Below are positions 1,453 through 54,726 of a stretch of DNA of 64,000 nucleotides, one piece after another; position 1 is the stretch's first letter; every line of letters begins with the position of its first letter. The DNA comes from an uncultured Verrucomicrobiae bacterium (GTDB lineage: Bacteria; Verrucomicrobiota; Verrucomicrobiia; Chthoniobacterales; JAFAMB01). The position numbers were made by a program, and so were the translations under genes. The stretch spans positions 32,001 to 96,000 of the forward strand of contig CAVXLD010000003.1 in the NCBI GenBank assembly GCA_963762565.1, read 5' to 3'. The notes below the pieces were generated by a model. That model was given only the letters and a program-made list of their open reading frames with translations. It ran no database searches and was not told the origin of the DNA.

Positions 1453-1507
1453 ATAGAAATCTTCGCTGTGGATCTTACCAAAAAGCTCCGCTGTTCGCTA
1501 TTGTCAA

Positions 1508-1948
1508 TTAGGCTTGATTAAGCGCTCGTTGGAGGGCGTTGAACAATGCATCTTCGCTGAAAGGCTTGGCCAGGAAATCCACCGCACCTCCGGCGATGGC
1601 TTCTGTCCGCTCGTCGTCGGTCGCACGGGCAGAGATAAAAATGATCGGAATGCGTTTGTTATCGCTCGTCAGAGTTCGTTGCAATTCCAAGCCATCAATT
1701 CCGGGCATCCGAAGGTCGAGGATTAGAACTAAGCACTTCGTCTCTTCGACCAGGCCTGAATCGAGAAACTGCTGAGCAGACAGAAAGGCTTCGGCCCTGA
1801 AACCAAAAGAGCGAACAAGGAATCGGGTCGAGCCTGCCATCGAGGGATCGTCGTCCACGATGCAAACCAGCGGGGCGGTGGATAAGTTGACACTACTGTT
1901 AGACACTTGATTGATTCTAGACTTCTTGAATTCTGCACGATAGCGCAT
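1508..1948 (-). CDS. Single-domain response regulator (receiver only); true start may be downstream
   Basis: IVDDD, LDLRMPG, FISA, FLAKPF; no output domain. Confidence 0.85.
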   Translation of the reverse strand: MRYRAEFKKSRINQVSNSSVNLSTAPLVCIVDDDPSMAGSTRFLVRSFGFRAEAFLSAQQFLDSGLVEETKCLVLILDLRMPGIDGLELQRTLTSDNKRIPIIFISARATDDERTEAIAGGAVDFLAKPFSEDALFNALQRALNQA

Positions 1949-1966
1949 CCGATAGCCTGTTGCCGG

Positions 1967-2000
1967 TTGGACCTTGGTCCCGGTCTATTGGACTTTGGTC
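1967..2000. promoter_or_regulatory. Tandem pair of GACCAAGGTCCAATAG-like motifs (candidate regulator binding sites)
   Basis: ttggaccttggtcc (1967-1980) and ctattggactttggtc (1985-2000); same motif at 5807-5823 and 6010-6026. Confidence 0.5.
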
Positions 2001-2008
2001 TTAGTTCT

Positions 2009-2075
2009 TAGTGTCCTGTCCCGTAAATGGCGTGCCTTTCGTCCGGCAGCTGTCGATTGGCCACGGCCCGGAGGG
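2009..2075. mobile_element. Truncated copy of the GTGT..ACAC MITE family
   Basis: tagtgtcctgtccc end plus ggccacggcccggaggg internal motif, shared with elements at 12469, 49868 and 55777. Confidence 0.55.
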
Positions 2076-2094
2076 ACGTTGCCTTGCGCGTCTT

Positions 2095-2222
2095 CAGCAT
2101 CTCCAACCCGCTACGCGGTGCTTTTCGGACTTGGCGCAGTACTCCAACACTCCCGCACTCCATCACTCAGCGTGGCCGGATTCGAGGACGAGGACGACGA
2201 CGAGGACGAGAACGAAGCGCCC
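2095..2222. repeat. Dispersed repeat family A, empty form lacking the inner module
   Basis: gtactccaacactccc..ggattcgaggacgaggacgacgacgaggacgagaacgaagcgcc; matches the reverse complement of 61462-61685 apart from the inner module. Confidence 0.8.
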
Positions 2223-2298
2223 GATGTAGGCTGACGCGAGAAATGATGTGGCCCACAGAAACCTCCTGGCATATCTTCTTGGGCCAGAAAAGCTTCGG

Positions 2299-3975
2299 AT
2301 GAAGGGGAGAGTCTCCATCGAGCGGATCGCGACGGCGCGGCAGCGCCTGGCGGAGCTGTCGGAGTTCGGTCCGCCTGGCAGCGAAAGTCAGGTACGAGAG
2401 GCCGTCGAGCTCCTTTTCAGTGTTCTCGATGAGCTGGAGACGGCTGCCAAAGGCGGCGAGCTCGAGCAAGAGACCGATAACGAAAGCCGGTTCAACACCT
2501 TGGCGGAGACGGCCTCAGACGGGATCATCTCTATCGATGACCAAAGCGCCATCCGGTACGTAAATCCCGCCGCCGGGCAAATGTTTGGCTACGAGCCAGC
2601 CGAAATGCTGGGCAAAAACCTTACCGTTCTCATGCCCGAGCGTTTCCGGCAGCTGCATCTGACCTCTTTTAGGAGGTATTTGGCCACGGGTCAAAGGCAC
2701 ATCCGTTGGAGAGCCGTTGAGCTGGTCGGCCTGCACAAGAGCGGTCGAGAATTCCCAATCGAGATCTCGTTTGGCGAGGACGCACGCGGAGACAAGCATT
2801 TCTTCACCGGCATCGTACGCGATCTTACGGACCGCAAGCGATCGGAGGAGGCCCTTCGGGTGAGCGAGCAGCGTTTGCAAGCCATCGTCGACAACACAAC
2901 TGCACTCGTTTTTATCAAGGATCTGGAACTCCGGTACGTTCTAGTCAACCGCGAATATGAACGCCTTTTTGGTATTGGACGCGATCAAATCCGAGGTAAA
3001 ACCGATTTTGACGTTCACCCGCATGATGTGGCCGAAACGCTCAGAGCAAACGACCGGCAGGTCATCGAAACCGGTGCACCCATGCAGTTTGAAGAGGTTG
3101 TGCCGTGGAAGGCAAGCGACCGTTACTATGTTGTCGTTAAATTTCTGCTGCGCGATCAAGCCAACGAGCCGTACGCGATTTGCGGCATTGCCACGGACAT
3201 CACGGAGCTAAAACAAGCGCAAGAAGACCTGCGCTCGAGAGAGGCTGAACTGACCCATGTGACGCGAATTATGACCATGGGCGAGATAACCAGCTCGATC
3301 GCGCATGAAATTAACCAGCCGCTTGGGGCAATCGTTAATTATGGAAATGCGTGCCTAAGACTTATCACGAGCGGGCCTGCTGACCTAACTGATATCGCCA
3401 CTGCCTTGTCGGAGATTGTAAATGATGCCAATCGAGCGAGTGCTATCATTGCCCAGATTCGGGCGCATTCGAAGAAGGCCCTTCCTGAGATGGTGGTGTT
3501 GGAGGTCAAGGACCTGGTGACTGAGATCTTGCCATTAGTTCGACACGAGTTAAATGCACGCCGGATAGTACTAAAAGCCGTTTTAGCCGACAATCTGGAC
3601 CCGGTCATGGGGGACCGGATCCAGCTGCAGCAGGTGTTATTAAATTTGGTGATAAATGGTATGGAGGCGATGCACCAAGTTCCAGAAGACTGCCGACATC
3701 TTTCTATCGAGGCGCAGTCCCATGTCTCGGAGGGCAAGGTGTTCATTCTGATCGCGGTGACGGACTCAGGTGTCGGCCTACCGGCGGAGGACCAACCGAA
3801 GCTTTTCGAAGCCTTTTACACAACAAAAGCAGAAGGCATGGGTATGGGGTTGGCCATCAGTCGTTCCATCGTGGAAGCGCATGGCGGACGACTATGGGCA
3901 ACGCCGAATGCCGATGTTGGTGCAACCTTCCAGTTCGTGTTGCCAGCGCAGAACCGTAGGGTGTCTCGGGTTTAA
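2299..3975 (+). CDS. PAS-PAS sensor histidine kinase (FixL/NodV-like)
   Basis: Two PAS/PAC repeats, H-box SIAHEINQPL, N-box QVLLNLVING, G-boxes DSGVG and GMGMGL; ORF track starts at 2248, ATG 2299 preferred. Confidence 0.9.
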   Translation: MKGRVSIERIATARQRLAELSEFGPPGSESQVREAVELLFSVLDELETAAKGGELEQETDNESRFNTLAETASDGIISIDDQSAIRYVNPAAGQMFGYEPAEMLGKNLTVLMPERFRQLHLTSFRRYLATGQRHIRWRAVELVGLHKSGREFPIEISFGEDARGDKHFFTGIVRDLTDRKRSEEALRVSEQRLQAIVDNTTALVFIKDLELRYVLVNREYERLFGIGRDQIRGKTDFDVHPHDVAETLRANDRQVIETGAPMQFEEVVPWKASDRYYVVVKFLLRDQANEPYAICGIATDITELKQAQEDLRSREAELTHVTRIMTMGEITSSIAHEINQPLGAIVNYGNACLRLITSGPADLTDIATALSEIVNDANRASAIIAQIRAHSKKALPEMVVLEVKDLVTEILPLVRHELNARRIVLKAVLADNLDPVMGDRIQLQQVLLNLVINGMEAMHQVPEDCRHLSIEAQSHVSEGKVFILIAVTDSGVGLPAEDQPKLFEAFYTTKAEGMGMGLAISRSIVEAHGGRLWATPNADVGATFQFVLPAQNRRVSRV

Positions 3976-4030
3976 AATCACCCAACACTCGGCCGGTTCT
4001 CGGCCTGATGACCCGGCAGCTGACTGCAGC

Positions 4031-4262
4031 GGCCATGAAATGGCCTAAGAGAATAACCCAGGCCTTCAGGCCTGGGTCACTTCATTTTAGCATCCGACCT
4101 GAAGGGGCGACCGAATCGGTGTGGTCATCACGCGTAGAAGTCGATACCGTTATGTCTGTATTCAAACTCTCGCCTGTCGGTCGCCCTTTCAGGGCGACCT
4201 CTCCGGTGCGGCTTCTCCCAGGCCTGAAGACCTGGGCTATTCTGTCAGGCCATTTCATGGCC
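4031..4262. repeat. REPIN-like long inverted-repeat element (family B)
   Basis: ggccatgaaatggcc..cccaggccttcaggcctggg mirrored by cccaggcctgaagacctggg..ggccatttcatggcc; lies between convergent genes. Confidence 0.8.
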
Positions 4263-4277
4263 AAAAAAGCCTCCTAC

Positions 4278-5720
4278 TCATGACTCCACGCACTGATTTA
4301 AAGCCGGTCGTTTCAAACCCATCTTTTCCATCCGGGCGAACAAAGTGGTGGGACTCACGCCCAAAAGCTCGGCGGCTCCACCGGCGCCCTTGATTTTCCA
4401 GCCAGCCTTCTGCATCACAGCAAGAAGGTTCTGGCGCTGGCGACGTTGCATTTCTATCTCAGTGAGGTATTCCGGTTCGGCCTGGTCTATATCCCTTGGC
4501 GCAACACACGTTGGATCGATTGAGGCACCAAACGCCGGGACATCAAACTCCAACAAACCGCCCCGGGCAGAAATGACGGCGCGTTCGATAACATTTCGCA
4601 GTTCTCGGATGTTGCCCGGCCAATCGTAAGCCAAGAGGGTTTCTATGCCCGGCCGGGTTAGTCTCGGCTTTGGACATCCGAGTTCTTTGAACAACGATTC
4701 GACGAAGTGCGTTGTCAAAAGGGGGATGTCTTCTTTGCGCTCCCTTAGGGCGGCAACTTTCAACGGGAAAACATTGAGACGGTAAAAGAGATCTTCGCGA
4801 AAACGGCCCTCGGTCACCTCTTTCTTTAAATCTCGATTAGTGGCCGCCACGATTCGCACATCGGCGTACCGGGTCTTCTCCTCGCCTACCCGTTCGTAAG
4901 ATTTCTCCTGCAGAACGCGCAAGAGTTTGCTCTGTAGTTGCAGGGGGATTTCGCCGACCTCGTCCAAGAACAGGGTTCCGCCCTCGGCGACCTCGAAGCG
5001 CCCAGCCCGATCTTTGATCGCGCCGGTGAACGCTCCCCTGGCATGGCCAAAGAATTCGCTTTCAAACAATTCCTTTGGGATTGAAGCGCAACTAACCCGA
5101 ACCAAGGGTTTGTCTCTCCGCCGGCTGCGCTCGTGAATAGCCTGAACGATGAGCTCTTTTCCGGTTCCGGTTTCGCCAAGAATCAAGACGGTCGAATCAA
5201 TGGGAGCGACCATGTCGATCTGCTTCATTAGGCGACGCAACGCTGCGCCCTTGCCTACTATTCCGGAAAAAGTGATTTCGTTGCGCAGTTCGTCTTCAGG
5301 GCAGGGCGGCTCTCGATTCGACTGAATTTTTGACGGCTCAATCTGACGACCCAGGTCGATCGCCTGGTCAATTGCTCTGAGCAAGTCTTCATCGCTGAAA
5401 GGCTTGGTCAGAAATTCGATGGCGCCCGCTTTCATAGCGCGCACACTCATTGGAATGTCGCCGTGACCAGTGACGAAAATAATCGGAATTTTAGCATCCC
5501 GGCGGACCAGTTCTTCTTGCAGATCAAGGCCGCTTATTCCCGGTAGTTGTACATCGACCACCAGGCAGCCGAGCGCCTCCACGGGCGGATTAGTCAAAAA
5601 CTCCTGCGCCGAGGAAAATGCCCGCACCTTCAGGCCCGCTGAGTGGAGCAGGAAGCTAACACTTTCCCGGATCGCCGATTCGTCATCGATTACACAGATT
5701 AGAGGACTGTTATCATTCAT
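4278..5720 (-). CDS. Sigma54-dependent response regulator (receiver-AAA+-Fis HTH)
   Basis: FixJ-like receiver, [31 protein letters not shown]-terminal HTH. Confidence 0.92.
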   Translation of the reverse strand: MNDNSPLICVIDDESAIRESVSFLLHSAGLKVRAFSSAQEFLTNPPVEALGCLVVDVQLPGISGLDLQEELVRRDAKIPIIFVTGHGDIPMSVRAMKAGAIEFLTKPFSDEDLLRAIDQAIDLGRQIEPSKIQSNREPPCPEDELRNEITFSGIVGKGAALRRLMKQIDMVAPIDSTVLILGETGTGKELIVQAIHERSRRRDKPLVRVSCASIPKELFESEFFGHARGAFTGAIKDRAGRFEVAEGGTLFLDEVGEIPLQLQSKLLRVLQEKSYERVGEEKTRYADVRIVAATNRDLKKEVTEGRFREDLFYRLNVFPLKVAALRERKEDIPLLTTHFVESLFKELGCPKPRLTRPGIETLLAYDWPGNIRELRNVIERAVISARGGLLEFDVPAFGASIDPTCVAPRDIDQAEPEYLTEIEMQRRQRQNLLAVMQKAGWKIKGAGGAAELLGVSPTTLFARMEKMGLKRPALNQCVES

Positions 5721-23185: not shown

Positions 23186-23302
23186 GCAGGACTAGGATTT
23201 CGGGTCTCGTATTTCCCGTTTCGGAATGCTCGATTCAGATCGGCACGGGGATGACGCGGGTGGAGCTGGGAACATAATAAGGAATGCACCTGACCTCTCT
23301 GA

Positions 23303-23395
23303 CTGTCCCGGAGGGACCGAGTGAAGGTAGCCTGGCATGAAATGCCTGGGGAACTGTGGCCAAAAGGGCCCCGTCCCGGAGGGTACGGTATGATC
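23303..23395. repeat. REP arm (family C), left of Y1 transposase
   Basis: gtcccggagggac..ggtagcctggcatgaaatgcctgg..ccgtcccggagggtacggtatgat; inverted copy at 23990-24077. Confidence 0.88.
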
Positions 23396-23400
23396 GGCGT

Positions 23401-23853
23401 CTAGTCCCAGAGGTATTTGTCATCGAGATTGCCGCCGTGGTTTTTGAGAAACGCTAAATATTCGTCTTTAAAAGTCCGGGTTCGGTGATGTTCAAGCTGC
23501 TGTTCGATGTATTGGATGGTTTCAGCTACCTGACGAATGCCAACGCTAAAGGCGCCGTAGCCTTGCTGCCAGGCAAAGTTTCGCAAGTGTGGAAACGTGT
23601 GATGTATCCAGCCGGCCGACCCTGTTTTTATTAATTTCATCGCTTTTGCAATTCCCATTGTGGTCGGCAGTGCAAGTAGAAGGTGGACATGATCCGCGAC
23701 ACCACCGATGCATTTTGGGAAAATTCCATTCTGTCTTGCGATGCCACCCATCTATGGCCAAAGGCGTTCCCTGAGATCTGGAACCAAGACCGGAGTGCGC
23801 TCTTTTGTGCTAAAGACACAATGGATGTTTAGACACGAGAAAGTGTTCGACAT
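23401..23853 (-). pseudogene. tnpA: IS200/IS605-type Y1 (HUH) transposase, REP-associated (RAYT-like), with an in-frame amber stop at codon 34
   Basis: MSNTFSCLNIHCVFSTKER..RLWP*MGGIA..DHVH..FAWQQGYGAFSV..YIEQQLEHH; TAG at 23752-23754. Confidence 0.88.
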
Positions 23854-23989
23854 CGGGAAGGGATTTAATCCAAATCCTGGAAGATGACAACAACAAATTA
23901 ATATGTGCTTATATTAGATCCGAATTCAAAACGCGTCATCAATTTCCGTGTGAGATAAGCGTAAATGCGGTTCCACCAGCGAGGACCCC

Positions 23990-24077
23990 ATCATACCGTC
24001 CCTCCGGGACGGATCGCTTCGGGGGCATCTTCCAGGCATTTCATGCCAGGCTACCTTCACGCGGTCCCTCCGGGACA
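23990..24077. repeat. REP arm (family C), right of Y1 transposase
   Basis: atcataccgtccctccgggacgg..ccaggcatttcatgccaggctacc..gtccctccgggac. Confidence 0.88.
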
Positions 24078-24102
24078 ATGCGGGCCCTGTCACAGACGCC
24101 CG

Positions 24103-25869
24103 CTATAAGTCGATTACCACGTCGCCTTTAGGTTGGGAGCAACAGATCAACACATTGCCTTGGGTGGGCGGCTCGAGAGGTTTAGGCTGGTAGTCGACTG
24201 TGCCCGAGATCAAGCCGCTTTCGCAAGTGTGGCAGACTCCTGTGCGGCACGCCCAGCGCACCGGCACGTCACAGGCTTCCGCGAAATCGAGAAGGCTAGA
24301 AAACTTTAGGTTCCAACACACATTGAGGCCGCTGCGCACAAACGAAACTCGTGGACCCGAACCCACAGGCCCCTCCGGGGGGTGTGGAGGTGCCTGCGAT
24401 TGATCGACGACACCGGGCGTTATCGATTTTCCCGGGCCGAAAATCTCCGTGTGCACCCGGTCGTCTGAAACGCCCCAGGCCACTAGTCCCTCTCTTAAAT
24501 CCCGCATAAACCCCGTAGGCCCGCACAGGTAAAAGTCCGCATCGGAGGGCGTACCCAGCTTTTCGAGCACTTCGACCGTGATTTGTCCTGTATAGTCGAA
24601 ATGTATGCCCAGACGATCTCCAGATCGGGGGCGACTGTATGCAATAAATCTTCTGCCGTTGGGTAATGCTTTGATCAGGTCGTGTGACTCCCCCGCAAAT
24701 GGGTGCTCATCGCCATTACGAGCGCCGAAAAGCCACCAGACTTCACGCGATGAGATTTCATGAGCCAGCGAATGCAGCATTGCCAATACTGGAGTTGCAC
24801 CAACACCCGCACTGACTAACACCACTGGCTTCGTGCCGGGTTGCAGCGTGAAATTCCCCCTCGGCGCAGCCACATCGAGCAAATCACCCAGCCTAACTTG
24901 ATTCTGCAAGTAGGTACTGGCGGCGCCGTTCACCTCCAGCTTGATACTCACCCGGTACTGGTCCCCACCGGGTAAATCCGAAAGCGAGTAGTTGCGCAAC
25001 AGAACTGGACTGTCGGGTTTCGGTTGTATGCGCAAGATAATAAACTGACCGGGCAGAGCGGCAACGAGCGGGCGATTATCAGCAGGAGTTAGGGTTAACG
25101 AAACTACGCTGGCGCTCTCCCGCTTGATACGAGAGACTTTTAGCTGCCGGAATCCCGGCCAGGAAGGCGGTGGGCCGCTCTCTGGCGTGAGCCCTGGGTT
25201 TGCCTGCTCCGGGGTCTCGCCTTTCTTGTTTTGCAGCATCGATTGAAATGAATCCTGCCATCCCTGGCTCAAGGCTCGGATGCGTAATGCACGCTCTAAT
25301 TGCTCGGAAGCATGATTCGGCAGATAAAGCAGTCCATCTATCTCGGCGACATTCATTCGCTCTGAGCCTTCCGCGACCTTTACAATTTCATCACCGGCTC
25401 CAACTTCACCTTCTTCCAGGACTCGAAGGTAAAAACCCGGCCGATGATGCGCCACCACCAGCGCTGCCATTTGCGGTTCGTCCAAGCGGATGCCGAGGCG
25501 ATAACAGGTAACCCGCGGTTGCGATACTTCGAATAATGCGGCGCCGATGCGATAACGGTCGCCAATGCAGACTTCAGCATCTGGCAAGCCTTCCACAGTG
25601 AAGTTTTCACCGAATTGTCCATACGAAAAGTCATGTCGGCTAAGTTGACGCTCCCAATAGCGGTAGGAATCGAGCTGGTAAACCATTACCGCGCGGTTCA
25701 CGCCCCCGTGGCCGGCCAGGTCTCCCTGGCCGTCACCATCGATATTCAGTTTTCGAACGATCACGCGACTAACCACTGGATTCTTCCAGATGCCGGTGCG
25801 GATGGTTTTACCGCGCCAGGTAATCTCGCGCGGAAGACCAACGTTAACGGATGTAAGCCGGGGTGCCAT
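24103..25869 (-). CDS. MOSC/3-alpha plus FAD/NAD-binding reductase plus 2Fe-2S ferredoxin fusion
   Basis: GQFGENFT, SQPRVTC (YiiM-like MOSC), RNYSLS, AGVGATP, YLCGP, CRTGVCHTC..C. Confidence 0.88.
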   Translation of the reverse strand: MAPRLTSVNVGLPREITWRGKTIRTGIWKNPVVSRVIVRKLNIDGDGQGDLAGHGGVNRAVMVYQLDSYRYWERQLSRHDFSYGQFGENFTVEGLPDAEVCIGDRYRIGAALFEVSQPRVTCYRLGIRLDEPQMAALVVAHHRPGFYLRVLEEGEVGAGDEIVKVAEGSERMNVAEIDGLLYLPNHASEQLERALRIRALSQGWQDSFQSMLQNKKGETPEQANPGLTPESGPPPSWPGFRQLKVSRIKRESASVVSLTLTPADNRPLVAALPGQFIILRIQPKPDSPVLLRNYSLSDLPGGDQYRVSIKLEVNGAASTYLQNQVRLGDLLDVAAPRGNFTLQPGTKPVVLVSAGVGATPVLAMLHSLAHEISSREVWWLFGARNGDEHPFAGESHDLIKALPNGRRFIAYSRPRSGDRLGIHFDYTGQITVEVLEKLGTPSDADFYLCGPTGFMRDLREGLVAWGVSDDRVHTEIFGPGKSITPGVVDQSQAPPHPPEGPVGSGPRVSFVRSGLNVCWNLKFSSLLDFAEACDVPVRWACRTGVCHTCESGLISGTVDYQPKPLEPPTQGNVLICCSQPKGDVVIDL

Positions 25870-31403: not shown

Positions 31404-32829
31404 AGAGTATGACGTGATCGTCATTGGAGCTGGGTCGACCGGAGAGAATGTAGCAGACCGGGCAGTCAAAGGAGGCTTGCGGGCTGTCATTGTCGAGGCT
31501 GATCTCGTCGGGGGCGAATGTTCCTATTGGGCGTGCGTACCAAGTAAAGCGCTGCTGCGACCGCTCCAAGCCGTGACTGCCGCACAAAGCGTTGCTGGAG
31601 CCCGGGAGGCGATCACCGGGAGTTTGGACGTAGCCCAAATATTCGCTAGACGTGACTCCTTAACTGCTCACTGGAATGACAAAGGTCAGAGCGATTGGCT
31701 GCGCAACGCCAAGATCGATCTTGTCCGAGGACACGCTCGTCTAGACGGCGAGCGCAAGGTGATAGTAACTGAAAAGAATGGCTCCACCATCGAGTTAATT
31801 GCGCGCCATGCGGTCGCTGTCTGCACGGGAAGTGGCGCGGCAATTCCTGCGACTCCCGGATTGGCCGAAGCTAGGCCGTGGACAAGTCGGGAGGCAACCA
31901 GCGCCAGAGAAGCACCCAACCGGCTGGCGATCATTGGGGGCGGTGTGGTCGCATGCGAGATGGGGACAGCTTGGTCGCGTCTCGGGACTCAGGAGGTCAC
32001 GATCATCGAGCGCGGACCGCGGCTCATTCCAAACTCTGAACCGTTTGCCAGCGCTATCCTGCAGAGCGCCTTTGAGCGACGGGGCGTAACGGTTTTGACC
32101 GGAACAACCGTTCTTCGCGTTGAAGGGAATGTAGATGGGGATGTGGAGCTCTCCTTGGATAGTGGCAAAACCATTGTCGCCGATGAGATACTTGTGGCTA
32201 CGGGACGCCGGCCGAAGACTGACAATCTCGGGCTTGAGACGGTGGGCCTTGAACCTGGCTCGTGGCTAGAGGTGGATGATAGCATGCGCGTTCAGGCAGT
32301 CGCTGGAGGTTGGTTGTACGCTGCCGGAGACGTCAACCATCGCGCATTGCTCACCCACATGGGAAAATATCAGGCTCGGATCTGTGGCGACGCGATTGTG
32401 GCGCGCGCTGCGGGCAAGCTGAATGATTCTAACCCCGCGCCCTGGTCACGCCACGCGGCGACTGCCGACACCGTAGCTGTGCCCCAAGTCATCTTCACTG
32501 AACCGGAGGTTACCATTGTCGGACTAACCGAACAGCAAGCACGAGCTCGCGGCATGACCGTGCGTGCCGTCGACTACGAGATCGGCCGGGTCACCGGCGC
32601 GTCGCTTTACGCCGATGCCTACACCGGTCAGGCACGAATGGTTGTAGACACGGACCGCAACGTGATCGTTGGCATGACGTTAGTAGGGCCATCGGTGGCT
32701 GAACTGCTCCACGCGGCAACCATCGCGATTGTCGGAGCCGTCCCCCTTGATCGACTTTGGCATGCCGTGCCAGCTTATCCCACGATTAGTGAGATTTGGC
32801 TGCGGTTGCTGGAGACGTTTGGACTGTGA
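31393..32829 (+). CDS. Pyridine nucleotide-disulfide oxidoreductase (dihydrolipoamide dehydrogenase-like)
   Basis: GAGSTG, GGECSYWACVPSK, GGGVVA, ATGRRP, YAAGD, dimerization domain. Confidence 0.88.
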   Translation: MAAKEYDVIVIGAGSTGENVADRAVKGGLRAVIVEADLVGGECSYWACVPSKALLRPLQAVTAAQSVAGAREAITGSLDVAQIFARRDSLTAHWNDKGQSDWLRNAKIDLVRGHARLDGERKVIVTEKNGSTIELIARHAVAVCTGSGAAIPATPGLAEARPWTSREATSAREAPNRLAIIGGGVVACEMGTAWSRLGTQEVTIIERGPRLIPNSEPFASAILQSAFERRGVTVLTGTTVLRVEGNVDGDVELSLDSGKTIVADEILVATGRRPKTDNLGLETVGLEPGSWLEVDDSMRVQAVAGGWLYAAGDVNHRALLTHMGKYQARICGDAIVARAAGKLNDSNPAPWSRHAATADTVAVPQVIFTEPEVTIVGLTEQQARARGMTVRAVDYEIGRVTGASLYADAYTGQARMVVDTDRNVIVGMTLVGPSVAELLHAATIAIVGAVPLDRLWHAVPAYPTISEIWLRLLETFGL

Positions 32830-52228: not shown

Positions 52229-52834
52229 CTGGGCAATTGTTCGACGAGTCGTTGCCTTTGTCTTGATGCCCAACGTGCCAGCTTCTCTTTCTGATTATCA
52301 TGAGCAACAAGTGCGATCCTCTTCTGGTTAAGCAACGGTCGAGGTGAACTACCATTCATGTGATTAGGGACGCTACACCAGCCCGTGACAAGCACTCCGA
52401 GTCGGTCACATGCTCACTTGCCTTTCAGGCAATCGATGAACAGTAACGAGTGCCCTTCTAGTGCAAGCGCCTTCATTTCTTCTTGGGTTGGGCGATAGTC
52501 AAAACATTCTTGACCCAGAAGGTGGTCGCCAGCGTCAGCCTGTTTGAGCAGGAATCCATCTGTGAATTCGCGCCATAGATCGCTATTTTCATTCATTTGA
52601 TCAGTTACTAGACATCAAGATTGGAAGGGCTAGCGGTTCGCTGTCTCAATTGCTGTATTTTTTGTCTTAACCCAGCTTAGCGCACTCTGGTTGTATTGAC
52701 CCTAGGCAGGCTGTTGAGAGACCGGTTCTTTTGTCCCGGAGGGACAAACCGATGGTAGCCTGGCACGAAGTGCCTGGAATTACGGCAAATTATGACCCGT
52801 CCCGTAGAGAGCCTGAGGTGGTCTGCAAGTTTTT

Positions 52835-54109
52835 TTAGGAAGAGTTTTTCACCGCGGCGAGTGGAGAATCGCGTTTAGCGAGGGCGGTGAGATAAAGTTG
52901 TGGGTCGTAGGGTTGACGGGTTTTCCAGCAACGGAAAAGAATACGGATCCATTTGTAAGCCAGAGCACGCACCGCGGCATGATGGCCTTTACCTTTGGCC
53001 TTTTGTTGGTCATAAAAAACCTTGGCCCAATCACAGAAGCCCACCGAGTGGCTGGCAAACTCATGAAAAGATTGGCGCACAAATTTCGGACAAGCCCAGC
53101 GGAAATGAACCCGAGAGCTTTTGCCGCTGCGTTCAGTGACTGGAGCGATACCAAAGAAGCTCAGTGCCTCCAGTGGGCTAGTGAAACGGTCCCGGTCGGA
53201 GCCGAAAGCGCTGAGCAAACGCGGGCCCAGCGCCTCTCCGGCTCCTGGGAGATTGTTGAATAAAGTGCTGTCGGGATGCTGAGCAAAAAGCTGGGCAATT
53301 TCTTTTTCGTACAGGACAATATAAGGGGCCATTGCTTTGAGCTGCTGGGCTAACATGAGGGTGGTCAAAGTCCCTGCGTCAATGATGGCTTTATCCCGAG
53401 TCAGAGGTTGGCCGGTCTCCACGCGTTGGATGCGGGCTTGAATCTTTTGTTCACTCCGGCACTGATGGCCATAAAAGAATCTGCGCAGTTTGTGAGTGGA
53501 GGCCTTTTTGAGCGACTCGAAGTTGGGCCAGTTGAGCAAAAAATCCGCCGCTAAGACCGTGGTCAGATCGTTATCCAATACGGCCAGAGCCAGAGGAAAA
53601 AAGGCCTTTAGTTCGCTTTTGAGCTGATTGCTCAAAGCGCTGCGAGCATCGACGGCTTGGCGCCGCTTTTCACAAAGAAGCGCTAACTTACGGGTTTGCT
53701 CGTCGTCGGGCCGCCAGGGATGCAACTGCTGGTAGTGCAGACTAACAAATTGACAAAGTAGCTGCGCATCACTGGGATCATCCTTAGCGCCGCTAGGCCG
53801 AAAGGCTTTGCGGTAGTTGTCGAGCTGTTTTGGATTAATGGGGTAGAGCTCAAAACAGTCATAACCCATTAAGAAATGAATCAGTGCTCCCCGACTCTGT
53901 TCCAGGCAGATCAGGATTTTACCTTCAGAACCAAAGCGTTCTCGCAGTTCCAAGACCCAGTCGCTCAAAGCTTCCGGCTGGCTCTCAATGCTGCGACCCT
54001 CCAGCTTGGCTTCCTCGGCGGCCGCTCGCAGAGCGATATCATGTTTTTGATCTGCCCAGTCGATTCCGACAAAAGCACTAATGGTTTTTTGATTGCTAGT
54101 GCTAGACAT
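52835..54109 (-). CDS. IS110-family DEDD recombinase/transposase
   Basis: FVGIDW, CLEQSRG, KDDPSDA (DEDD); C-terminal LPGAG..GIAPVTERSGKS with conserved Ser, AVRALAYKW. Confidence 0.93.
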   Translation of the reverse strand: MSSTSNQKTISAFVGIDWADQKHDIALRAAAEEAKLEGRSIESQPEALSDWVLELRERFGSEGKILICLEQSRGALIHFLMGYDCFELYPINPKQLDNYRKAFRPSGAKDDPSDAQLLCQFVSLHYQQLHPWRPDDEQTRKLALLCEKRRQAVDARSALSNQLKSELKAFFPLALAVLDNDLTTVLAADFLLNWPNFESLKKASTHKLRRFFYGHQCRSEQKIQARIQRVETGQPLTRDKAIIDAGTLTTLMLAQQLKAMAPYIVLYEKEIAQLFAQHPDSTLFNNLPGAGEALGPRLLSAFGSDRDRFTSPLEALSFFGIAPVTERSGKSSRVHFRWACPKFVRQSFHEFASHSVGFCDWAKVFYDQQKAKGKGHHAAVRALAYKWIRILFRCWKTRQPYDPQLYLTALAKRDSPLAAVKNSS

Positions 54110-54149
54110 GGCTGGCTTTAAACTAAATTGATTACAACAAACACTGGCG

Positions 54150-54397
54150 ACGCCCAGAGTGACGACAAACCCTTATAGTGAGACGTAAATCGCACTTGGG
54201 CGAGTTCGTCACGGCCTGAGTATTGTTCTGCACTCCAGGCTGATCAGCCACCCGAAACTCTACGGGGATTCGTTACCGAAGGGGACGGTTATTCGTGGTG
54301 GCTGACGCGCCTTGGGCGAAGTTATTCACAATCTGGGCTCGCTCACGCTCCAAAGCTCTTTTTGGGGGCTTTGGCCCCAGATCGATGAATAACTTCG
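54150..54397 (-). ncRNA. Putative bridge RNA of the IS110 element
   Basis: 5' hairpin 54317-54397; target loop in stem 54244-54305 with guides ACCGTCCC and CCCGTAG; donor loop in stem 54159-54212 with CTATAAG. Confidence 0.8.
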
Positions 54398-54726
54398 GAC
54401 CACCTATAAGGGACGGTATGATCGAGTAACATCGATGGGGCGATGTCCGAGGGCCTCCAACCGCGAACTGAGACTTGCATTAAAGATCCGTCTCACGCCT
54501 AGCAATCGCCAATCATACCGTCCCTACAGGACGGATCCGCTTGGGGGACGCCTTCCCAGGCACTTCGTGCCAGGCTACCATCGATTTGTCCCTCCGGGAC
54601 AGAAGGGCCCCGTTTTCAATCCGGCAGCTGCCGGCAGCTGCCGGACTAGACTATAACCTTTCAGCCCCGACGTGCTCCGGGGTAAACGCTTCGCGACGCC
54701 TTCTAAGTCAACTGGGCAACAACTTG

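Follow-up and report, generated by a model that had tools for sequence, protein, structure and literature searches.

The stretch of DNA described here, called the window throughout, consists of 64,000 nucleotides (nt) from an uncultured soil bacterium of the Verrucomicrobiae (GenBank assembly GCA_963762565.1, genome G000 below). It covers positions 32001 to 96000 of contig CAVXLD010000003.1 (C3:32001-96000, where C stands for contig), and coordinates without a contig are window positions. There are two related loci in the window. At 23304-24078, an arm-gene-arm cassette of 775 bp is made up of a Y1/HUH transposase gene between two inverted arms of ~94 nt each. At 52731-54601, two facing arms of the same profile family form a doublet without the gene, and one of these arms is split by an insertion sequence (IS) of the IS110 family. 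The features of both loci are as follows.

23304-23397, plus strand: left cassette arm, with three hairpins, ending 3 nt short of the gene's stop codon
23401-23853, minus strand: IS200-like Y1/HUH transposase pseudogene, 150 codons plus stop (PF01797, NF033573)
23752-23754, minus strand (CTA on the plus strand): in-frame TAG at codon 34, replacing a conserved Tyr/Phe
23854-23986, minus strand: AT-rich spacer of 133 nt from the start codon to the right arm, presumed promoter region
23987-24078, minus strand: right cassette arm, an inverted copy of the left (family profile, complementarity, single-stranded DNA fold)
52731-52805, plus strand: doublet left arm, cut in hairpin 3 by the IS110 element, with its remainder at 54411-54425
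52806-54408, minus strand: IS110-family element, 1,603 bp including one copy of the CT core
54110-54408, minus strand: left non-coding end of the IS110 element, 299 nt, with a predicted bridge-RNA-like fold (z -5.6)
54409-54425, plus strand: target core (AG on this strand, CT on the IS strand) and the rest of left-arm hairpin 3 (GGGACGGTATGATCG)
54509-54601, minus strand: doublet right arm, whose hairpin 3 contains a near-target, ATACCGTCC-CT-ACAGG, from 54515 on the plus strand

The arms were delimited with a family profile built from the genomic copies, which matched 23304-23397 on the plus strand and 23987-24078 on the minus strand with an E value of ~7e-22 each. The left and right cassette arms are 85% identical over the profile, and the outer 46 nt of the cassette (23304-23349 versus 24032-24077) are 98% complementary. 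From the outside to the inside, both arms contain hairpin 1 (GTCCC-GNA-GGGAC), a GTAG tag with hairpin 2, ~20 variable bases, hairpin 3 (CCGTCCC-GNA-GGG(N)ACGG), and TATGAT. The general form of the tag before hairpin 2 is [A/G]TAG. In the left arm, hairpin 1 reads GTCCC-GGA-GGGAC and hairpin 2, directly after the GTAG tag, reads CCTGGCA-TGAAA-TGCCTGG; a variable stretch of ~20 nt separates it from a bulged hairpin 3, CCGTCCC-GGA-GGGTACGG, which is followed by TATGAT. Folding of the arms as single-stranded DNA (ssDNA) gave all three hairpins, with z scores of -2.0 to -3.4 (-2.0 for the left cassette arm). Hairpin 3 of the right cassette arm contains another near-target of the IS110 element, ATACCGTCC-CT-CCGGG (23993-24008, plus strand). 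When 23200-24200 was scanned for sigma-70 promoters and terminators, no terminator and a single promoter-like site, on the strand opposite to the gene, were found, and the result was not above that for shuffled sequences.

The initial annotation of this region had described three tiers in one window, namely, an HUH/Y1 gene between inverted arms of ~90 bp, the same arms without the gene, and an IS110 element interrupting the latter. All three were recovered: the arms by their profile matches and complementary ends, the doublet by its membership in the same profile family, and the IS110 element by its position inside hairpin 3 of the doublet left arm. The annotation was also correct about the single TAG at codon 34 and about near-targets near 23993 and 54515, each of which has one right-side mismatch to the occupied site. 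Its proposal that the window locus is the source of the gene-less copies fared less well and is taken up below.

The transposase gene and its stop codon

When the TAG was read as X, the gene product matched Pfam family PF01797 (Y1_Tnp) with an E value of 1e-24 and 87.4 bits, against a cut-off of 23, and its paralogues scored 82 to 100 bits. The product also passed the NCBIfam IS200/IS605 equivalog NF033573, with 64.4 bits and a cut-off of 55. In an alignment of this protein with nine homologues, H55-V-H57 (the HUH motif in the form HVH), Y115, and Q119 were invariant in 10 of 10 sequences, and by analogy with IS608 TnpA we take these to be the catalytic residues. The tyrosine motif reads YIEQQLEHH or YIERQLEHH, that is, Y---Q--HH. 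The nearest solved structures are the TnpA proteins of the IS200/IS605 family (ISDra2, 2xm3; IS608, 2a6m), with E values of 5e-7 to 7e-6.

At the column of codon 34, the other nine sequences have Tyr (six) or Phe (three), and the intact paralogue reads TAC. An ATG immediately after the TAG (23749-23751) opens a 116-amino-acid (aa) open reading frame (ORF) that lacks the conserved N-terminal strand; because the 33 residues before the stop include five invariant positions, this ORF is unlikely to be functional by itself. The gene also ends in TAG.

The alleles of this codon were compared in contigs from public soil runs laid on 23250-24130. The TAG was kept in run X1, which is possibly the source, and in run X4, from another sample of the same study, with no difference over 506 nt in the former and one over 810 nt in the latter. 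A contig from run X6, belonging to another study and with a depth of ~4, has C>G at 23752, giving TAC (Tyr). In a contig from a third study, run X5, position 23743 is joined to 24001, a 257-bp deletion that takes the 5' end of the gene together with the inner portion of the right arm. A locus from a related metagenome-assembled genome (MAG), L046, is syntenic with the window locus, its left flank being 91 to 92% identical and in the same orientation; codon 34 of its gene is TAC, but 7 nt are deleted at codons 20 to 22. In light of the X6, X5, and L046 alleles, the TAG represents a nonsense change at the strain level, and the gene has been lost several times independently at this place. The window copy is a pseudogene that was recently killed by a Tyr-to-stop change.

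Two further features of these alleles were observed. The same X6 contig joins the left flank to the cassette interior in the reverse orientation (joint at 23370/24012). In L046, the orthologous arms (1000-1095 and 1659-1754) both have CGAAG as the loop of hairpin 2, versus TGAAA in both cassette arms here. This compensatory change of a base pair has become fixed in the two arms alike and suggests their concerted evolution.

Arms, doublets, and the IS110 element

The genome has five Y1 genes, three of this type and two distant ones. Both paralogues of this type are intact: copy 2 (C3:712443-712892) is 83% identical to the window copy in protein and 82% in DNA, and copy 3 (C7:408679-409128) is 66% identical in protein and 68% in DNA. 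The two distant genes (C9:102247-102681 and C1:119014-119460) are 39 to 40% identical, and the latter is interrupted by an in-frame TAA. All three copies of this type have the same arm family, with unit lengths of 775, 775, and 763 bp and inner gaps between the arms of 589, 592, and 592 nt. The copy 1 locus, in the window, is syntenic with L046, and the copy 3 locus is syntenic with a locus in G004, another genome of the genus. At the copy 3 locus (C7:407000-410900 versus L003, on G004:C75), the cassette matches in the orientation opposite to that of its flanks, so it is inverted between two genomes of the same genus. The flips seen here and in the X6 contig, which is possibly an assembly artefact, could be due to recombination between the arms.

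Across the genome there were 68 matches to the arm profile, which resolved into 21 inward-facing pairs and 26 unpaired single or partial arms. The pairs comprised 3 around Y1 genes, 1 around the IS110 element, 16 without a gene, and 1 overlapping half-pair. The 16 gene-less doublets have spacers of 44 to 152 nt and total lengths of 199 to 340 bp. Two inverted arms with a short spacer and no gene, repeated across the genome, constitute the anatomy of a REPIN, a doublet of repetitive extragenic palindromes (REPs). Identity of the genome's arms to the gene-flanking arms ranged from 57% to 90%, and some doublets have arms and spacer in common (e.g., C3:953202, C14:131847, and C5:192379). The doublet at C12:2244-2534 retains a remnant of the 3' end of the gene in its spacer, which indicates that doublets can derive from cassettes by internal deletion. 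The left arm of that doublet also contains two extra insertions.

In the doublet that carries the IS110 element, the outer ends of the arms (52728-52777 and 54556-54605, 50 nt) are 96% complementary, and the arms are 73 to 78% identical to those of the cassette. Without the IS, the doublet would be 1870 - 1603 = 267 bp, the same length as a near-identical uninterrupted paralogue at C3:427529-427795. These two have ~20 more bases in common on each side, again as an inverted repeat (52707-52731 and 54602-54625; C3:427504-427820), and the copied unit thus extends beyond the arms. The arms of the IS-bearing doublet are 73 and 77% identical to the left arm of the window locus, 75 and 84% to that of copy 2, and 77 and 74% to that of copy 3. 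Its hairpin-2 loop is CGAAG, as in the right arm of copy 3 and unlike the TGAAA of the window locus. We tried to assign this doublet to one of the Y1 copies and rejected the attempt, as overall identity and loop type disagree. The loop type is not a stable marker, because at the copy 1 locus L046 has CGAAG and this genome has TGAAA.

The recombinase ORF of the IS110 element (52835-54109, 424 aa) matched PF01548 (DEDD) with 92.7 bits and PF02371 (Transposase_20) with 41.6 bits. Read on the IS strand, its junctions are ATACCGTCC-CT|TATAGG... and ...CAGGCTCT-CT|ACGGGACGG. The left non-coding end contains a stem-enclosed loop. The 5' side of this loop, ACCGTCCC (8 nt), has the sense of the left target, and its 3' side, CCCGTAG (7 nt), is complementary to CT-ACGGG. 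The ends of the IS are matched by a second loop. We applied the guide rule as given in PMC11208160, by which the 5' side of the loop has the sense of the left target and the 3' side complements the right target, core included. Both loop segments fit this rule for ACCGTCC-CT-ACGGG, and the loop is therefore a predicted bridge-RNA guide that matches the insertion site. An Rfam scan of the IS110 region found no bridge-RNA family and, apart from the Acido-Lenti-1 motif discussed below, only sub-threshold chance matches. Relative to the occupied site, ATACCGTCC-CT-ACGGG, the near-targets at 23993 (CCGGG) and 54515 (ACAGG) differ by one right-side base each. From base composition, ~0.07 exact target 14-mers per genome are expected, and the genome contains two unoccupied ones in addition to the occupied one. 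Sites with one mismatch lie within arms in 10 of 11 cases.

A broader view came from G020, a genome of the same family and another genus, which has nine copies of an IS110 element 77% identical to that of the window. Eight of the nine touch an arm-profile match, and the readable junctions, ...GTCC-CT|TATAGG... and ...CAGACCT-CT|CCGGGAC, are mostly within hairpin 1. All seven readable right junctions are CT-CCGGG, the complement of that element's guide. The 3' side of the guide is CCCGGAG with target CT-CCGGG in G020 versus CCCGTAG with target CT-ACGGG here; since the two elements differ matchingly in both, guide and target have changed together. The nine copies do not represent nine independent events, because two have 140 nt of flank in common and two occupy both arms of one doublet. 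At L025 (G020:C2:163673-170186, ~1460-5055), two copies of this IS110 lie head to head in the two arms of a single doublet, each within hairpin 1, in the manner of a composite transposon. In G017, the 10 best-matching copies of a 46% identical IS110 (L016 and L032-L040) are all at ...ATTTTCG|...|CCCTACC..., within a different long palindromic repeat (GGCTCAAACAAGTTCTCG type), and no arm-profile match was found at these 10 copies. G017 therefore supports the use of repeats by IS110 elements and not the use of this arm family. Together, the decoded guide, as predicted, and the comparison with G020 make the IS110 tier well supported at the sequence level.

Homologous loci and the Acido-Lenti-1 motif

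The closest relatives of the Y1 protein are in MAGs of Verrucomicrobiae, and the clade reaches Acidobacteriota, Planctomycetota, Calditrichia, and others. Of 80 homologous loci that were fetched, 45, from several phyla, had an arm-profile match, and in 16 the gene was bracketed by one arm upstream and one inverted arm downstream. In 62 arms from these loci and from this genome, the sequences of hairpins 1 and 3 are conserved, and 95% and 85% of their cells, respectively, are paired. Hairpin 2 is variable but retains its pairing, with double changes at 8 of the 14 pairs in the RNAalifold consensus; one pair, for example, was GC in 28 arms, AU in 23, and GU in 10, and another was AU in 25, CG in 17, UA in 5, and GC in 5. 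A hand-drawn register for hairpin 2 on the MAFFT alignment gave 48% of cells paired, with a higher value when slid by +1, and was set aside in favor of the RNAalifold consensus. Retained pairing in a variable sequence is the pattern expected of a hairpin that would be recognized by its shape, with a conserved tag at its foot, and it resembles the GTAG-tagged REPs as described in the available text of PMC3733652. Tandem arrays of half or whole arms were also observed beside a Y1 gene or an IS110 element, in L052 (a Desulfococcaceae contig, 582-2830), L014 (G020, 2788-3203), and L093 (684-936). They indicate that the arms also amplify head to tail, and the array in L052 reaches 24 units.

The arms are probably a diverged branch of Acido-Lenti-1 (RF01687), an orphan Rfam family of unknown function for which this locus gives a context. 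RF01687 matched the window arms across all 46 positions with 14.8 to 17.8 bits, below the gathering score of 37. Above the cut-off, it matched arms beside homologous Y1 genes (20 matches in 9 of the 20 loci searched) and 30 places in this genome, which form a sister family to the window arms. There were 0 matches in 14 control genomes. Many of the 30 matches form inverted pairs 190 to 260 bp apart, e.g., C1:1191748-1191984 and C5:285762-286025. RF01687 matches also adjoin the two distant Y1 genes, with 41.8 bits upstream of the gene on C9 (C9:102120-102164) and 38.3 and 35.4 bits, one on each side, at the gene on C1 (C1:118882-119560); the genome thus has at least two enzyme-arm systems. The Acido-Lenti-1-type arms of this genome follow the same three-hairpin plan as the window arms. 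The motif as presented in PMC2864571 is built in the same way on the opposite strand, where hairpin 2 and CUA(C) are followed by a linker of 12 nt and then by hairpin 1. The Rfam model differs in that it is 46 nt long, lacks hairpin 3, and is filed as a small RNA (sRNA) gene. Among 41 related genomes, which as kin are not independent, 23 had both the motif and a Y1 gene, 1 had only Y1, 6 had only the motif (1 to 11 matches), and 11 had neither. A literature search on the name of the motif found no paper linking Acido-Lenti-1 to transposases.

Comparison with known systems and rival explanations

All three tiers, the REPtron or TIRtron, the REPIN, and the IS110 element in a REP, belong to known kinds of mobile DNA. 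Like the REPtrons and TIRtrons in the accessible text of PMC3733652, which include a sharply defined Acidobacteria group, the cassette has a Y1/HUH gene between inverted arms, a GTAG-tagged hairpin with other stem-loops, arms repeated as genomic dimers, and several cassettes per genome. It differs in its IS200-like Y---Q--HH enzyme and in its fixed three-hairpin arms of ~94 nt, the comparison being with the wording of that paper and not with its arm sequences. A gene flanked by inverted REPs that populate the genome, the mark of a REP-associated tyrosine transposase (RAYT), is also found here. As in the REPIN-RAYT systems of Pseudomonas and E. coli, to the extent covered by the excerpts of PMC3116915 and PMC5581495, gene-less inverted doublets occur across the genome and the flanked transposase gene has a fixed syntenic place. 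The classical REPs there are ~20 to 25 nt long and number in the hundreds, whereas we found 94-nt arms and 16 doublets, and the classical RAYT is a single-copy class-2 protein, whereas there are 3 + 2 copies here and they are class-1-like. The enzyme resembles TnpA-Y1 subclass 1.2, as far as it is set out in the part of PMC6006769 available, in its Y---Q--HH motif, conserved C-terminal extension, and low copy number; set against that description, conserved hairpin arms are present here and in the 45 related loci. With the IS110 elements that insert into REPs (IS621, PMC11208160; ISPpu9, PMC12288879; ISPpu10, bioRxiv 10.64898/2026.03.19.712850, each in partial text), the window element has in common the DEDD and Tnp_20 domains, the CT core, the guide-loop layout, and a target within a repeated palindrome. 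IS621 targets the GTAG foot (PMC11208160), in contrast to the window element, which is single copy and targets the loop of an accessory hairpin, GTCC-CT-NCGGGAC, in a three-hairpin arm.

We consider it probable that the cassette is of the REPtron/TIRtron type with a subclass-1.2 Y1 enzyme, that the doublets are its non-autonomous passengers, and that an arm loop is a landing site for the IS110 element. Direct computation gave the anatomy of the loci, the census of the family, the alleles at the stop codon, the conservation of arms beside homologous genes, the covariation of paired bases, and the match of guide and target. That the Y1 protein mobilizes the doublets, and where it would cut, we infer. 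IS608 TnpA and the E. coli TnpA-REP protein are the model for the binding, cutting, and rejoining of hairpins on ssDNA. By analogy, the Y1 enzyme would bind the tagged hairpin 2 on single-stranded DNA and then cut and rejoin nearby, and this would copy or move pairs of arms, making the 16 gene-less doublets passengers like REPINs or miniature inverted-repeat transposable elements (MITEs). The two intact paralogues could act in trans, and because the window copy is dead, any present activity must come from them. The conserved loop GTCC-CT-NCGGGAC would then serve as the landing site for an IS110 element with a bridge RNA tuned to it.

This changes part of the initial annotation. It had proposed the window locus as the likely source of the REPINs, which is unlikely at present given the nonsense codon and the breakage of the gene in L046 and X5 as well. 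Neither is the window locus singled out as the source of the IS-bearing doublet, since there are two intact paralogues with the same arms and the doublet is not specifically closest to it. The claim that the IS110 element targets REPINs agrees with 8 of the 9 copies in G020; in this genome, it comes down to a single insertion and the guide match. The placement of other IS copies in such arms (G020) and the arms beside homologous transposases (present at 45 of 80 loci, with the gene bracketed at 16 of them) agree with what the annotation had expected. Its other suggested checks, a genome-wide count of doublets and their IS110 occupancy, a search for an intact transposase copy, and an examination of the TAG, gave 16 gene-less doublets and 1 pair with the IS110 element, two intact copies, and, in contigs of public runs, the TAG in X1 and X4 and TAC in X6.

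Several observations weigh against the passenger reading set out above. The protein lacks the class-2 RAYT motif YI[HLR][QN]NP and is thus not a classical RAYT, E. coli TnpA-REP was not matched among solved structures at E<=0.01, and there are three copies of this Y1 type and five Y1 genes in all, not one. The IS110 element is single copy in this genome, and two exact target 14-mers, one of them within an arm, are unoccupied. No two arms in the genome are identical, and there is therefore no sign of a recent burst. No clean filled/empty orthologous doublet site was found; when five genomes of the same genus were searched for the place of the IS-bearing doublet in its empty state, the upstream gene (G004, 86%) was the sole match apart from dispersed arms and short fragments of IS ends.

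One could also regard the arm-gene-arm unit as an autonomous IS of the IS200/IS605 family with the doublets as its MITEs, and not as a domesticated RAYT-like gene with REPINs. The product passes the NF033573 equivalog and is closest among solved structures to IS200/IS605 TnpAs, a genome has several copies in a constant unit of 763 to 775 bp, one doublet contains a gene remnant, relatives occur over many phyla, and G022 and G020 have 32 and 16 matches, many of them fragments. IS200/IS605 elements, however, have asymmetric ends without terminal inverted repeats and occur as near-identical multiple copies. The window arms are symmetric inverted repeats, 85% alike, and the three copies are old, at 82% and 68% nucleotide identity. 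The synteny of copy 1 with L046 and of copy 3 with G004 points to vertical persistence at fixed places, and the Y---Q--HH subclass is low copy and without IS properties in the available text of PMC6006769. We therefore judge an autonomous IS to be improbable.

A quite different explanation is that the arms are small structured RNA genes, or terminators or regulators, that lie beside a transposase gene by coincidence. It would account for the covariation of hairpin 2 and for the Rfam entry "Gene; sRNA" of the related motif. The arms, though, occur in inverted pairs, so that both strands carry them, and at 16 of the 80 homologous loci, across phyla, a Y1 gene is bracketed by them at fixed distances. 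RF01687 matches adjoining the two other Y1 genes, on one side or on both, the co-occurrence of motif and gene in 23 of the 41 related genomes (not independent, as noted), and the lack of a terminator-like site at 23200-24200 argue in the same direction and make the RNA explanation very improbable. Scarcely credible is the idea that the TAG is a sequencing or assembly error or is read through and that the gene is really intact. A single-base change (TAC/TAT to TAG) with an ATG immediately after it might invite this thought, but contigs from two samples (X1 and X4) have the TAG, the gene's own terminator is TAG, a second Y1 gene has an in-frame TAA, and the locus is independently broken in L046 (7-nt deletion) and X5 (257-bp deletion).

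Beyond the passenger reading, we lean toward a wider proposal. The window arms and Acido-Lenti-1 would form one deep superfamily, and the motif would be the ssDNA recognition end of a phylum-spanning, IS200-derived Y---Q--HH lineage and not an sRNA gene. That lineage would be a second, independent REP/RAYT-like system, in which each genome has several enzymes with their cognate arms and the cassettes flip between arms, and the IS110 elements of this bacterial family would retune their bridge RNAs to the available conserved arm loop, hairpin 3 here and hairpin 1 in G020. On these readings, the locus offers a clean example, found in nature and outside the Proteobacteria, of nested parasitism in a genome, in which a Y1 transposase has non-autonomous hairpin repeats and the repeats would serve an RNA-guided IS110 element as a safe landing site, the change of guide and target being visible between two genomes. 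For annotation, such arms would be marked as mobile-DNA ends and not as sRNA genes, and the window Y1 gene as a pseudogene.

Some smaller features of the arms and doublets were also observed in this genome. A fragment of another IS110 recombinase (42% identical, residues 285 to 406 only) is present at C7:319674-320051 and 320247-320315, ~200 nt from a partial arm. Another subfamily of doublets has a one-sided common flank of ~25 nt (AACCTGATCCGATACCTGTCC type); this flank either belongs to the unit or is a preferred target. Three arms, at C1:1206615-1206727, C3:798478-798595, and C12:2244-2394, have the same extra hairpin-forming insert of ~25 nt just 5' of hairpin 2, and this insert may be a still smaller nested repeat.

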